Shown here: positions 2,092-15,900 of the stretch, piece after piece
How positions within the stretch are numbered: position 1 is the stretch's first letter
How the letters are laid out: each line of letters opens with the position of its first letter
NCBI GenBank assembly: GCA_977018835.1
Contig: OZ361258.1
Location: 3,906,001 to 3,970,000 of the forward strand
DNA: 64,000 nucleotides
From: Minutocellus sp. GHC0000111
Taxonomy: Eukaryota
Reading direction: 5' to 3'
Program-made: the position numbers and the translations under genes
The notes under the pieces: model-generated
What the model was told of the DNA's origin: nothing
Database searches by the model: none
What the model saw: the letters and a program-made list of their open reading frames with translations, nothing else

Positions 2092-3894
2092 AGACAGTTT
2101 TGAATTTCCCAAGGATTGCTACGCTCAACCCCCTTATTTTTGGCACGAAGCATAGGTACGTTTTCCAGCAATATGAACTTTTGCTCTTCCGAGTATCTGC
2201 GAACGAACTGCCATGAAACAAACAAACACGAGAGGATGATAGTAAAAACACGTAAACATATGGATCGATAGGACCTAAGTTCATTGAGGAGAAGTTTACT
2301 TTAAGATATATTGACTCTCTTTGTTTGTTCCGTTTCGGTTCGGTTCGTCTCCCGAGATTATGTGGATGACATGTGGCCGGCCCCGCAATGCCTATTTTCT
2401 GCCGATCTAACGAATTTATTTCACACTATACATGTTCCTCATTTGTATTTGCAGGTACCTTGAATGATAAGTAAGTCCGTCCAACATTGGTGTGATTTAT
2501 TCATCGCCCCACAGTACCGGTAGGTTGAGAGGTATGCAGTCGCTGTACACCTGTACGCAGGGCCACCAATATATAATGCTACAAGCGCCCAAGAGAGTGA
2601 AAGCACCGGTGCCAAAGTTTGCACTGGAAACAGTGACGGTATACAAGTGCGATATTGTAGCAAGCGCAAAACGATACGATGGAACCGGCAAGCAAGAAGC
2701 ACTTCTCGTCCATGGATTTGATCGTGCGAGGAATAATGTTTTTTGAAGCTAATCTTTACATCGCACGGGAGCTCGCGGGGACCTGATTAGATAGAAAATG
2801 ACATTATAGACCATCACAGAAAGATTTTCTCGTCGATCACCGATACCATAGTTTCGATGGGTACACATTGCAACTGACCGTGGATCGGGTGGCTTTTATA
2901 TGTAGATCTATTGATTGCCTGTCTTCTTCTTCTTCCAACCAAAGCGGTAGTTGCAGTACGAATATAATAATCAGTGAAGACAGCAGATACGTAAAGTCGC
3001 CAACGAACTTAGGCAATAAATCGCTTCCGGCATTGCTTCGTAGCGGGCAGGTTTTGCTAGTGGAATTCAAAGAAATGTGCCTCGGCAATGAGAATCATGT
3101 GTGACCCATCCGTCGTTCTCTCAATGCCCAAAGGAGATTCCAAGCATCTGAAGCAATACTCTCGACAGATTCATTTATTTGGAGCCAATTTCGTCGAGCA
3201 CGTAGCAATCATGTGCAGTCATTTGCAAATCTCTCTCCATCCATCCAAAGCACCATGCAACCAACAGCACGCTGTCGCAATTCGCAATCGCAAAAACGTG
3301 CAAACCAATGTCATCAAAATTGGTACCTTGCACTTCCATTTCCGACCCTCATTTTTCATTGCCTTGCGGGCCTCCGTTACCAAGGGCTCATACTTGACGA
3401 CCGCTCCGCCGTTGCGTCGGCCACCGGCCCTGATCGCTCGAGCAAGGCAAACGCCAACCTACGGTGAGCTTGGTCGGGCGTCATTGCCTCGGGATGGGTT
3501 GTTCTCCGCCGGCGAACATCGAGGGGGTTTCTCCCCTCTTTCATGAAACGGGGGCAAATTTGACAAAAACGGGGAACTTCCCAGAAATGCGTTTTTTTTT
3601 TTTCAAAAAAGGATTCGATTCTTCGATTGATTCATTCTTCCTTTGTTCCATTTACTCGATTGGCCTATCAAGATGCTGTCTAACGTCTGTCGTAATTGAT
3701 ACGATCTGCTCAATTCATTTCTTCTATTCCCCTTTGCCTTTGGCCACAGTCAAATCGCTGCCCAGTTCCTCTCTTTCTCTCAGCTGCTCGGTGGAGGTGT
3801 CCTCGGCTGGCCTTGCCCCAATCGTCCATTGTTGACAGAAAAATCACGTTGGTAACGACGGTGCATCGGCCGCGCTTTACACACAGAGGCAAAG

Positions 3895-11878: not shown

Positions 11879-12366
11879 TAGGATGCCAAGGGTACGGATG
11901 CAATGGGAAATGGGAGGATGTGGGAGGAATTTTCGGGCAACAAGGCAGCGAAGCGAAGGTCTGATTCATTCACTTGACTTTGCCTACGTGTACTGCGAAT
12001 GTTGTTGTTATGGTGTCTTCTGTGTCGGATGGGATTTATTTATGGATATGTAGCTATGTGTGCCTTCTGGCAATAAAACAATCAATGCTGCCTTTGCCAG
12101 ATACTACTAGTAGTACATACACAACTGCGTGGAACAACCTTGTCTCTGACGAACGTCAATAGAGTGGCTGCCTCTGCCCGCCTTCGCTGATGATGAGGAA
12201 GGTCTGCCAGCTGGCTTTTTCTCTTCGCTTCAAGCGCCTTGCTTCTTCTTCGTCGCGTCTTCGTCTGGTGTCTGCCGGGTCTGCTGCCGTGGCGTGTTTC
12301 TTGGCTTTCTTTCTTGCAGTCTGTCACACGTCCCGATCTTTTCGGAAAGCCAATTCCAAATAATGG

Positions 12367-12403
12367 TGACGTCAAGTAATGGTCCGTCGAAAGAGTGACG
12401 TCA
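12367..12403. promoter_or_regulatory. two palindromic TGACGTCA (CRE/aureo-box-like bZIP) sites
   Basis: TGACGTCA at 12367-12374 and 12396-12403, in the divergent intergenic region between the HSF gene and the selenoprotein gene. Confidence 0.4.
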
Positions 12404-12963
12404 TGATCCGCATGGTGCATGTGCACGAGCAAATGGAGAATTTGACAGGCAGAAGCTACTAGCTAGTACTACGTAGGCCTAGTAAGTGGACCCATTGTGT
12501 GAGCCCCTTGACGCGCTTGAGCACACTTGACGCCCAACAGCTGCAGGGATATTTTTGCTATTTTTGTTGCCTTGACTTTCGATTTCGCGACGAAAATGAA
12601 TTTCGCGTGCGTCACCCCCCATTTTCACGTCCCCGAACATTTCCATTCAGCCAGCCAACGAGGGTACTTCTATCATTGGCTGCAACGCGAGCGCGCGCAA
12701 AAGGCTCTTTGGCCACACTCAGCATCTCCCAACTCGGCTCTTTTTGGCCCATCGAACAACCCTCCTGGCCCTTGGAAAGACGCACGCATGCCTGATTATT
12801 TGGCAGACGAATTAATTTTATCAGTTCTGCTTCAGCCACACATACAGCAAGCGCCGAGAGGATCCACGGCCTAGCTAGAGCCTGGATTCGTTTTCGAGAT
12901 CCCAGCTTGGGTTCGACTCATCACAGCTCCGCAAGCACGAAGTAGCCAGCCACCGAACAAAAC

Positions 12964-14013
12964 ATGGCTCCCGTCGGCGACTTTTACGTCCATGTTCTCA
13001 ATCGAAACGAGGAACAAATTGCCAATGGTGCCGCTACTGCCAAGTTGATCTCATCGAAGTGGCTCATCACCCAAGTCGGCGGAGGCAAACCGGCGGTCAT
13101 CCACTTCTACGACGGCGGGTGAGGCGGGTGCCGCCCCTGCGCGGCGCAGATGGAGCGGTGGGCGAGGCAGTATCCCGGTGCCACGTTCCTGTGCGTCTGC
13201 GTCGACACGTTGGGGGTAGCACAGCAATTCGGTCGGATGTTCGGCCTGCGGGCGGCCGTCAACTGCCACATTCCCAGCCAGGAGTATCTGCCCCGTGGAT
13301 ACGGCCAGCTGGGATGCTCGGGATTTGTCGTCGCCGATGGAGAAGGCAACTTCCTCAGCCGCAAGACGAGGGCCTACCTCGACTACGGCGATGCGGCCTT
13401 TGCCCATGTCGAAGAGCTGCTTGCTGGCCAAGGCGTGAGCAAGGGATCCGGTATTCAGTCTTCTAATTCGACGACCAGCAACAAGGACGACCGTGTGGAA
13501 GCGGTGGCTGGTGCATCGGACCACGATGAAAAGAAAGAAGATTTACCTGCAGAAAAGGTGCCATCGGTTGGTGTGGATAGTATGGACGACGAGCACGAAC
13601 GCTGCGAGGCAGCCCTTGCCCTGCTACGCCAAACGAATTCGGTCAAGGCGCTGGAAGCTCTAATGGGTGAACTGATCCAGCATTTTGAGCACGAGGAGAA
13701 TCTAATGAAGGAACACAATTTTGGTATTGCTGACGACAAAAACACCTCCTTCTCTCCTTATACCTCTCATTGCAAGGACCACGAACGCATTCTCGATATA
13801 GGATTCCGTGCCTTGGCCAGGGCTCATGGCTACTCCAAAGGCACGCCGAGTCTTGGTGATTGCGAAACTGGTTCCTGACACAAATCTCCAAGCGATGCCC
13901 CCAGCAAGACAGTGGACTCGTCTGTCTACAAGGAAATCGCCGAAGCGTTTGCCACGCACGCCAACTTCTTTGACGTATTGTATAGCGGTGCCATCCCTTC
14001 ACAGGCGAACTAA
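12964..14013 (+). CDS. thioredoxin-fold/hemerythrin fusion selenoprotein candidate (349 aa) with two in-frame UGA codons (13120-13122, 13876-13878)
   Basis: One frame runs from ATG 12964 to TAA 14011-14013, interrupted only by two TGA. The first sits in PAVIHFYDGG-*-GGCRPCAAQMERWARQYPGATFLCVCVD (Trx-like). Hemerythrin ligands H211, H240/E244, H269/H273 precede the second TGA; H332/D337 (AFATHANFFDVLY) follow it. Two SECIS-like hairpins lie downstream. Confidence 0.85.
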
Positions 14014-14059
14014 GGTGTGATACCTTGCTATACCTTCTTTGTATTCGATCCTTCACGTG

Positions 14060-14140
14060 CCGCTTCCTTCTCACTGAATGAATTTCCATTATATAGCAAC
14101 AGTTGTTAGTGTGGAGATGAAGATGTGTCGAAGAAGACGG
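14060..14140 (+). other. SECIS-like element 1 (cis-regulatory RNA hairpin in 3' UTR)
   Basis: ATGAA (14078-82) ... TGAA (14118-21) GA-quartet core. Upper helix TTTCCAT/GTGGAGA; lower helix CCGCTTCCTTC/GAAGAAGACGG. Folded by eye. Confidence 0.7.
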
Positions 14141-14183
14141 CTAGCATTTCAATAAGTCTACAATCATTGTATATACTTGGCTC

Positions 14184-14272
14184 GGGTATTCCCACGATGA
14201 ATGAAATTCCACCGACTGAAGTTGATATATCTTGTCAGTTCTGGAAATGAATATCGCCAGGGAAACCTGCCC
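14184..14272 (+). other. SECIS-like element 2 (cis-regulatory RNA hairpin in 3' UTR)
   Basis: ATGAA (14201-05) ... TGAA (14248-51) core. Upper helix TTCCA/TGGAA plus GACTGA/TCAGTT, with AA at the loop entry; lower helix CGAT/ATCG and TTCCC/GGGAA. Folded by eye. Confidence 0.75.
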
Positions 14273-14380
14273 TAGATTCGTAAATATGCGATTTAATCAA
14301 CAGTTTTGGATTGTGCATAATAAATTAGGGAGGAAAGGAACTAGCTTATTGGTCTAATGTTAGTCCAAGCGAGGTCAACT

Positions 14381-15589
14381 TCATAAGCAGTCAATGTGTA
14401 TCAAACTGCATACAAACTCAATTGTTTTCTTCAATAATATGGCAGGTACCTGCCGTAGCTCGGCCATTTGTCCATCTGAATACATTGTAGAACTTGAACT
14501 TGTCGGTGTTGCACCTCTACTTGCTTCAATCGGATCATATGCATAGACTTGTTCGTAGACCCAATTTGGCCCCGTGTAAAGGATCGGCGCAGAATAAATT
14601 AGTTGGCTTTGTTCTTCTTCTGGGAAAACATGGCTTGACTTTCGAGCTTCTTGAACGAAAAATAGAGCTGTTTCTATCGAAGCCCGAACCGCATTCGGCG
14701 AATGCGGAGTGTTGGTATAGGACCCTTCCTTTAGAGACCATTCAAAACTTGCCTTTTCAGGGTGCCACTGCACTCCGTAAAAGGGGTAATTGTATGCCTC
14801 CATGGTCGACACTTCCCCTCCGCTGGCTGTGGCGACATTCGTCGATAGGACTCGAAAGATTGAGTTCAGAGCTGTATTCCTGTCATACTCGTCTAGGAGG
14901 AATCCATGGCTGTGCGAATTGAACGTAATGTTCTCTTTGGAGAGAGCAGTTACCAAATCAGGGTCCATGGAACCAAAGAGTCGGCTGGATGGTGCTTCGG
15001 GAGTGAAGTTGAGAGGAAGGGCAATGTTCGTTGCCTCAACGTCCAAGCTAATGACGCTACCACTTCCAGTCTCCAATACCGACAATTCTTCAAAGCCAAG
15101 GCACGTGCCCCAAATTGGATAATAGTCTCCATTGTCGTTTGCCTCCTTCGCCATATCCCACAACAACTTTCCCTCCTCGGTGTATATGTCATCCGGCAGG
15201 ATTCCTTGGCTCCCTCCGGGTAGCAGCAAACCACTCGTACGGTTGAATATTTCTCGGTAGTAGTCCTTGGATCTGCCAAGCAATACCGGGATGGCGCGAG
15301 CACCTGCCTGCCCGACCCAGTTCACGTAACTTGACGGCACCATCAGATCATACGCAGCGAGAGGACCAGTAGTTGTGATTGTGCTCGTTTGTTGAGCAAA
15401 GATGCCAATGACTGGGCGAAGGTTGGGGTTTTCACTGGTCTGCGTCTGCTGCCTTTGCTGTTGCCGCCGTTGCCGCAGTTGAGATTGTTGATCAGTCACC
15501 ATCTGAGCGGAGCCGGAAGAGGGGACCAACCAGCAAACAGCAAAAAGAAAAGTCGCGGCAATTCGCCGAGAGAACGGGATCTGTGGCAT
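14381..15589 (-). CDS. GGH: gamma-glutamyl hydrolase (peptidase C26), secreted/vacuolar
   Basis: Signal peptide, then RPVIGIFAQ, SYVNWVGQAGAR, GLLLPGG, PIWGTCLGFE (nucleophile Cys) and YPFYGVQWHPEK. Confidence 0.9.
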   Translation of the reverse strand: MPQIPFSRRIAATFLFAVCWLVPSSGSAQMVTDQQSQLRQRRQQQRQQTQTSENPNLRPVIGIFAQQTSTITTTGPLAAYDLMVPSSYVNWVGQAGARAIPVLLGRSKDYYREIFNRTSGLLLPGGSQGILPDDIYTEEGKLLWDMAKEANDNGDYYPIWGTCLGFEELSVLETGSGSVISLDVEATNIALPLNFTPEAPSSRLFGSMDPDLVTALSKENITFNSHSHGFLLDEYDRNTALNSIFRVLSTNVATASGGEVSTMEAYNYPFYGVQWHPEKASFEWSLKEGSYTNTPHSPNAVRASIETALFFVQEARKSSHVFPEEEQSQLIYSAPILYTGPNWVYEQVYAYDPIEASRGATPTSSSSTMYSDGQMAELRQVPAILLKKTIEFVCSLIHIDCL

Positions 15590-15900
15590 CGTCAAATCTG
15601 TGTGCATTCTGGTCAATGTGCGTTCCGTAATCTTTGAAAGTCCATGCGCGGTCTTTTCAGGTCAGATGCAGCGAATGAAGCCTGGCAATCTTTGTGGCAT
15701 GGCATGGCATGGCATGGCCATCAGGTCAGAAGAAGAGGCCAGAAGCAAAGCCCGCGATACGGCGCGGCGGACTGAAGGACAGACCAAAAAGATATGCTGT
15801 CGATTTCGGGTCAATTTTTGACATCGCCGCGAGATGGCCAACCAAACCAACCAACCCGAAGCGGCATGTCAACTAACGGTACATTACTTGCGACTACTTC

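Follow-up and report, generated by a model that had tools for sequence, protein, structure and literature searches.

Does the second of two in-frame TGA codons in a gene for a thioredoxin-like/hemerythrin protein end translation within the hemerythrin domain, or is it decoded as a second selenocysteine (Sec), and what would such a residue do at that place? The question is raised by a plus-strand gene of the window (i.e. the whole 64-kb stretch of DNA that was analysed), in which the second TGA precedes the codons for the last two iron ligands of the domain. Comparison of sequences indicates that this gene is a real, conserved two-Sec form of a catalogued selenoprotein family. Taken as one reading, it is likely that the conserved TGA at 13876–13878 encodes Sec in the loop between helices 3 and 4, that the tail behind it forms helix 4, and that the product is a two-Sec TlpA/hemerythrin protein whose second Sec belongs to a redox arm.

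An open frame with two in-frame TGA codons

The frame extends from an ATG at 12964 to a TAA at 14011–14013 and gives 349 residues when TGA is translated as U (Table 1). This translation bore out every coordinate and residue number that a preliminary description had assigned to the gene, in the order DDEH211, H240-FEH-E244, H269-CKD-H273 and C300-ETGS-U305; the 44 codons past U305 read HKSPSDAPSKTVDSSVYKEIAEAFATH332-ANFF-D337-VLYSGAIPSQAN. The N-terminus (i.e. MxxPVGDFYVH) was kept in full-length relatives, and the UGGC motif contained a TGA in nearly all of the relatives' loci readable there. O2-binding hemerythrins carry seven iron ligands in the pattern H, HxxxE, HxxxH and HxxxxD, all of which were present in the translated gene product. 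As had been pointed out in the preliminary description, a product ending at residue 304 would be without two of these ligands, which follows directly from the sequence.

Table 1. Positions of the parts of the two-TGA gene and of the elements in its 3′UTR
Feature	Position in window	Strand	Details and basis
Whole coding sequence	12964–14013	+	349 codons and TAA; intron not required; two in-frame TGA codons
TlpA/DsbE-like thioredoxin-fold domain, residues 1–159	12964–13440	+	VIA-align, Foldseek
First TGA (U53), redox motif GG-U-GG-C-R-P-C	13120–13122	+	Translation; UGGC motif in relatives
Disordered inter-domain linker, residues 160–204, without Cys	13441–13575	+	pLDDT <50 for residues 166–189
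Hemerythrin helices 1–3, residues 205–287, with H211, H240, E244, H269 and H273	13576–13824	+	Pfam PF01814, AF2, ligand conservation
Flexible, lineage-specific loop between helices 3 and 4, residues 288–318, with C300 (13861–13863) and second TGA	13825–13917	+	Low pLDDT
Second TGA (U305, predicted selenocysteine), with H-K-S-P behind it	13876–13878	+	Column conservation
Hemerythrin helix 4 and C-terminus, residues 319–349, with H332 (13957–13959), D337 (13972–13974) and invariant Y340	13918–14010	+	AF2, structure alignment, dN/dS
SECIS-like element 1, AUGA 14078–14081, GA 14119–14120	14064–14134	+	Best R1 match, fold
SECIS-like element 2 (weaker), AUGA 14201–14204, GA 14249–14250	14187–14263	+	Second R1 match, fold

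Models of the post-TGA segment as the fourth hemerythrin helix

Pfam matched residues 203–288 to Hemerythrin (PF01814) with 28.9 bits (cutoff of 25.3 bits), the match ending ahead of the loop, and residues 42–81 to Thioredoxin with a weak 14.2 bits, under the cutoff. Comparison of the hemerythrin match with and without the read-through tail, as proposed in the preliminary description, was uninformative about the tail (28.9 versus 28.8 bits, profile positions 2–93 of 127 both ways), because the insertion of ~35 residues breaks the HMM alignment.

Structure prediction was more telling. The AF2 model of the whole protein, based on a 45-row alignment, had a pLDDT of 82.8, with helices 1–3 at residues 205–224, 227–250 and 265–287, a further helix at 319–340 (pLDDT of 90–95) and a loop at 291–310 of low confidence (55–58). 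For the domain alone, pLDDT was 89.5 and pTM 0.81, again with four helices and with values of 62–68 in the loop. These models agree with the earlier view that the hemerythrin contains an inserted loop, between helices 3 and 4, in which the TGA lies. The further claim that the segment past the TGA is helix 4 and bears the last two ligands, H332 and D337, passed the AlphaFold check that had been proposed for it and was reinforced by alignment to known structures. In VIA-align, the full model had a Z of 15.7 with 4xpw (model residues 193–346 on chain residues 1–131), 14.5 with 1hmd (193–344) and 14.3 with DcrH 2avk (193–349), and the post-TGA helix aligned to the last helix of all three. The top 11 Foldseek matches of the domain model were all hemerythrins (E of 0.013–0.93, target-normalised TM of 0.65–0.82), including 1hmd with an rmsd of 1.4 over 139 columns. 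A profile search of PDB sequences matched myohemerythrin (E of 2e-7) and 4xpw, the latter over profile positions 202–327. The full-length model gave only thioredoxin-fold matches in Foldseek (CcmG, DsbE, ResA), and residues 1–159 aligned in VIA-align with DsbE 3gl3 (Z of 15.6, model residues 1–158) and TlpA 1jfu (Z of 12.2). Read through to its end, the gene is thus predicted by these models to specify a complete hemerythrin domain with the ligands of the O2-binding type and a di-iron site.

Conservation of the second TGA and of the tail

A search of 5.8 billion proteins yielded 138 homologues, those with names being from diatoms (i.e. Odontella, Thalassiosira, Mediolabrus, Stephanocyclus, Amphora, Pseudo-nitzschia and Bacillariaceae). 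A scan of metagenome contigs yielded 80 related loci (designated by L numbers), of which 58 were assessable in that both HxxxH and an in-frame HxxxxDxx[YF] were there; the remaining 22 were cut, interrupted or without the region. A TGA in the helix 3–4 loop followed by the in-frame HxxxxDxx[YF] tail occurred in 42 of the 58, and 16 had no Sec at that place. The spacing from HxxxH to H332 was 41–80 residues in the loci with the second Sec versus 31–53 in those without it. Among 45 hemerythrin domains aligned without redundancy, the column of the second Sec contained 34 TGA codons, one TGT (Cys, in L006), eight gaps and two other codons. Genuine Sec sites are usually recognised by exchange of Sec and Cys between homologues. 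Residues H211, H240, E244, H269, H273, H332, D337, C118, C214 and Y340 were invariant across 45 aligned full-length sequences, and an in-frame stop lay behind the tail at an equivalent position in the 42 loci. Two loci (L052 and L053), which end in ...C-SKQGG-TGA-TAA, were not counted as having a C-terminal Sec, as this TGA may just be the stop.

The expectation that the tail would be conserved across orthologues was borne out by pairwise dN/dS values (Nei-Gojobori), which were 0.10–0.27 for the post-TGA tail and similar in the upstream coding part. The values for tail and inter-TGA region, respectively, were 0.18 and 0.175 for the window gene and L001, 0.174 and 0.223 for the window gene and L002, 0.127 and 0.114 for L004 and L008, 0.216 and 0.152 for L012 and L014, and 0.267 and 0.19 for L021 and L038. 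The tails of L039 and L040 differed by five synonymous and no non-synonymous changes. Two close pairs had no synonymous excess in the tail, i.e. L023 and L025 (one synonymous, four non-synonymous changes) and L027 and L033 (0.88), both with few changes and the latter including the degenerate-looking L033. The tail is under purifying selection equal to that on the upstream coding region, and the combination of loop TGA and coding tail is, judged from these alignments, not the outcome of chance.

Individual loci departed from this plan. L044 contains an open frame of 576 residues (positions 59–1786) with three in-frame TGA codons and a second UGGCRPC motif, and looks like two thioredoxin-like domains ahead of the hemerythrin. 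The frame of L035, L036, L045, L050 and L051 is broken directly past HVKDHERILDIG, a place at which the window gene is uninterrupted; this suggests an intron right after HVKDHERILDIG in some genomic copies.

SECIS-like elements in the 3′UTR

Elements that could direct Sec insertion were sought with Rfam models, pattern scans and covariance models. The Rfam SECIS models had no match at E ≤ 10 in positions 12000–15500 and none in 14 relatives with clear SECIS elements, and therefore do not reach these algal elements. Pattern scanning detected clear AUGA...GA elements in the 3′UTRs of many relatives. In the 3′UTR of the window gene, a strict pattern had no match and a relaxed pattern passed element 2 only, which is weak evidence alone given 45 matches of that pattern in 128 kb. 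An energy-based scan was dropped as too permissive. Aligned with MAFFT, the full set of 17 SECIS candidates did not give a structure-consistent result, and two covariance models, one for each subtype (i.e. R1 and R2), were therefore made. R1 was derived from the SECIS elements of six relatives, none of them from the window.

An R1 search of both strands of the entire window, with no filters applied, gave 12 matches at E ≤ 10, of which element 1 was the best (20.9 bits, E of 0.0035) and element 2 the second (13.7 bits, E of 0.28). R2, the model of the other subtype, had no match in the 64-kb window. Both elements fold into stem-loops (−28.1 kcal/mol with a z of −3.1 for element 1; −25.8 kcal/mol with a z of −2.45 for element 2) and have AUGA...GA cores with helices I and II; on our own reading, both lack an unpaired AA at the spacing from the AUGA that textbooks give. 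The SECIS of L001 and the first one in L002 both aligned with element 1. By sequence, the elements of the window gene appear homologous to those of its relatives.

Tandem SECIS-like matches of R1 and R2 were present in 12 of the 80 loci, a number that includes several near-duplicates and is set against many loci with too little 3′ sequence to judge SECIS number. Three matches were found in L002 and two each in L003, L037, L039, L040, L041, L043, L045, L050, L013, L017 and L027; L001, L005, L006, L014, L018, L034 and L065 had a single match. The tandem was clearer in relatives than in the window, with scores of 27.7, 62.8 and 49.8 bits in L002 and of 39.2 and 59.6 bits in L017. The tandem elements of five two-Sec relatives (L002:1258–1577, L017:1267–1521, L013:1140–1356, L027:985–1235 and L039:2694–2875) share the core GCAGAATGA...TGATATTGC or GTTGAATGACGTA...CTGAGAAA.

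Possible roles of the second Sec

The surroundings of the loop TGA (i.e. C-x4-8-U-H/R/Q-K/R-P) are kept as protein in dozens of loci. A Cys lies 5–12 residues ahead of the Sec in 37 of 42 loci and is absent or 15 residues off in the other five (L012, L013, L014, L019 and L044). The selenenylsulfide between C300 and U305 that had been suggested in the preliminary description is plausible on the former count; as a general feature of the family it does not hold, given the five loci without a nearby Cys. The residue after the Sec is His in 26 of the 42 loci and Arg, Gln, Ser, Gly, Pro or Trp in the other 16.

A related arrangement was found in a distant clade with T-G-U-G-G-C-W in place of the diatom-type UGGCR motif. 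Members of this clade have no loop; a [C/U]x3-5[C/U] motif occurs in the inter-domain linker of 10 of 13 loci, and a TGA falls within the motif in four of these 10 (L067, L068, L069 and L071), versus one of 40 loci of the UGGCR clade with such a linker motif. The second in-frame TGA of the UGGCW clade lies in the linker as, for example, U-QTGS-C, U-SDGS-C or C-VGNS-U (L067, L068, L069 and L071; also L061, L079 and L076), and L059, L070 and L077 have Cys at both positions of the motif.

The proposal that selenium supply switches the metal centre, with termination at the second UGA giving a three-helix apo-protein and Sec insertion a complete di-iron site, is improbable. It would be consistent with the absence of H332 and D337 from a product ending at residue 304, and the efficiency of UGA decoding is known to depend on selenium status. 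The first UGA, however, lies in the same mRNA with U53 252 codons upstream of U305, and by this reasoning would fail first and stop ribosomes at low selenium, so that any ribosome at the second UGA has already inserted Sec once. The on/off switch is unsupported because the earlier UGA must be decoded first. Conserved and often tandem SECIS-like elements moreover fit efficient read-through better than regulated termination, and the short isoform is undocumented. The same domain is retained in relatives with Cys (L006) or without the loop, and hence can do without a switch of this kind.

There is similarly little to recommend a reading in which Sec305 and the His that mostly follows it ligate or gate the di-iron site, or some other metal, instead of serving as a redox shuttle. 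Sec is a metal ligand in other enzymes, and U-H is the commonest pair (26 of 42 loci). Against this, the domain already has its seven canonical ligands, all of them invariant, 16 of the 42 loci have another residue (R, Q, S, G, P or W) after the U, the loop is predicted to be disordered, and the Cys/Sec pair in the linker of the other clade fits redox chemistry better.

The recurrence of a Cys/Sec pair on disordered segments at differing positions in the family is more readily reconciled with a mobile redox arm than with a role in structure or regulation. Both UGAs would be read through under the direction of one or two SECIS elements in the 3′UTR. Sec305, usually with a Cys 5–12 residues before it and followed by His, Arg or Gln and then by Lys or Arg, would act as a mobile selenol/selenenylsulfide arm and may link the UxxC centre by electron transfer to the di-iron site or to the oxygen species bound there; as the loop is of low confidence in the models, their geometry connects Sec305 with neither the iron site nor U53. 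The redox-arm function is an inference. On this reading only the full-length protein would be functional, and a chain ended at the second UGA would be a failed product, not an isoform made under regulation. A wider proposal is put forward tentatively and may well prove wrong: the Sec arm would wire the di-iron oxygen site to the UxxC centre to form a self-contained Se-dependent O2/peroxide-reducing or O2-gated oxidoreductase, the arm having been placed independently in the helix 3–4 loop of diatoms and in the linker of other algae, and the tandem SECIS elements having evolved to secure both UGAs.

Transcripts and database entries

Four RNA runs (X1–X4) yielded contigs at low depth over 13155–13432 and 13435–13594 only, so that RNA cover stops at 13594, short of the second UGA, which lies outside it together with the tail. 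Four other runs (X5–X8) resemble genomic assemblies in their complete cover and in showing allelic bubbles. No splice joint was present in any of the eight runs. Allelic differences were seen as a G>T at 13123 in contigs of X6 and X7, which converts GGC to TGC (i.e. G54C beside U53), and as several bubbles in 13143–13268 and 13516–13644, with none in the post-TGA tail.

Nine MMETSP ORFs, whose stop is known from the ORF ends and not from nucleotides, and two EukProt entries, from either transcripts or gene models, begin at M63 and stop within the loop, a few residues past a Cys. In those derived from transcripts, the mature mRNA therefore has a stop codon at this place. This evidence bears on the reading in which a short intron takes out the TGA and no Sec is inserted. 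On our own reading, a GT at 13850 and an AG at 13911–13912 enclose an in-frame interval of 63 nt (13850–13912) that could serve as such an intron. Its splice-site context (GTCTTG) is poor, however, and both the conservation as protein of the residues around the TGA in dozens of loci and the stop retained in the mRNA of relatives argue against it; we consider splicing of the TGA highly improbable.

Most of the 138 homologues are 225–250 aa long and correspond to the stretch between both TGA codons (i.e. M63 to residue 304), and public gene callers end the protein at the second TGA; a true stop with the tail as an untranslated relic of a formerly longer gene is nevertheless scarcely credible and, as far as these alignments indicate, already contradicted by the conservation data, i.e. 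a tail dN/dS of 0.10–0.27, invariant H332, D337 and Y340 and a stop at an equivalent place in 42 loci, and by a hemerythrin that would miss two of its seven ligands.

Seven full-length homologues carry W at both TGA positions, presumably from gene callers with a TGA=W code. Public models of this widespread diatom protein are cut down to the inter-TGA piece, and its thioredoxin-like active site and last hemerythrin helix are missing from databases. P0052, P0063, P0067 and NCBI 'hypothetical protein' entries of Thalassiosirales are examples of the inter-TGA fragment.

Relation to known proteins

An algal 'TlpA' (thioredoxin-like) selenoprotein with a hemerythrin metal-binding domain is catalogued in the main text of Jiang et al. 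(2020, BMC Genomics 21:699, PMC7539508), and one thioredoxin-like protein is given as a selenoprotein of Thalassiosira pseudonana in that of Lobanov et al. (2007, PMC2375036); the latter is probably of the same kind. The window gene has the architecture of this family (i.e. a thioredoxin-like fold, Sec in UxxC and a hemerythrin domain), and shares with algal TlpA as described in the main text of PMC7539508 the fusion of a thioredoxin fold with Sec in UxxC to hemerythrin, in marine algae and mostly in the Sec form. It differs from these accounts in the predicted second Sec within the hemerythrin and in the tandem SECIS-like elements, which are absent from the main text of PMC7539508 and PMC2375036. 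In the literature searched, no Sec inside the hemerythrin domain and no tandem SECIS elements of the TlpA family were found, and the supplement or database of the 2020 study may list them.

The domain resembles hemerythrin, myohemerythrin and bacteriohemerythrin (1hmd, 2mhr, 4xpx/4xpw) and DcrH (2avk) in its four-helix bundle with H...HxxxE...HxxxH...HxxxxD (Z of 14.3–15.7, rmsd of 2.1–2.7). Unlike those proteins, it is joined to a thiol/selenol oxidoreductase domain, has a flexible Cys/Sec insertion of ~35 residues between helices 3 and 4 and, across the family of the window gene, contains an invariant C214 three residues past the first His ligand. Residues 1–159 share the fold (Z of 12.2–15.6) and the position of the CxxC-type motif with bacterial TlpA, DsbE, CcmG and ResA, from which the protein differs by Sec in place of the first Cys, by the hemerythrin fusion and by a putatively cytosolic location without a signal peptide.

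The C-terminal GCUG arm of thioredoxin reductase is a flexible Cys/Sec pair that shuttles electrons between redox centres. It serves as a working analogy only, with no homology, as the thioredoxin reductase pair is adjacent and C-terminal whereas that of the window protein (i.e. C-x4-11-U) lies within a loop that belongs to another domain. Selenoprotein P of animals combines several UGA-Sec codons in one mRNA with two SECIS elements in one 3′UTR, as the window gene may do; that protein is unrelated, and the window gene has only two predicted Sec codons and a weak second SECIS-like element that is not in every relative. A 3′UTR with several SECIS-like elements would be a rare non-animal case. 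The two-Sec form would also provide the complete domain architecture of an abundant marine selenoprotein, and leads to the testable idea that a Cys/Sec arm, placed in differing flexible segments in each algal clade, couples an iron-oxygen site to thiol/selenol chemistry.

Other features of the window

A strong SECIS-like pattern (GATGAC..., with nine helix-II and six helix-I pairs) was found by the strict scan on the minus strand at 3237–3314; it was not among the R1 matches at E ≤ 10 in the window, and might serve another selenoprotein gene on that strand. Downstream of the two-TGA gene, a convergent gene at 14381–15616 on the minus strand encodes a Peptidase_C26 (gamma-glutamyl hydrolase type; PF07722, E of 4.7e-14). 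The stop codon of this neighbour lies ~120 nt from SECIS-like element 2, and the 3′UTRs of the two genes may overlap.
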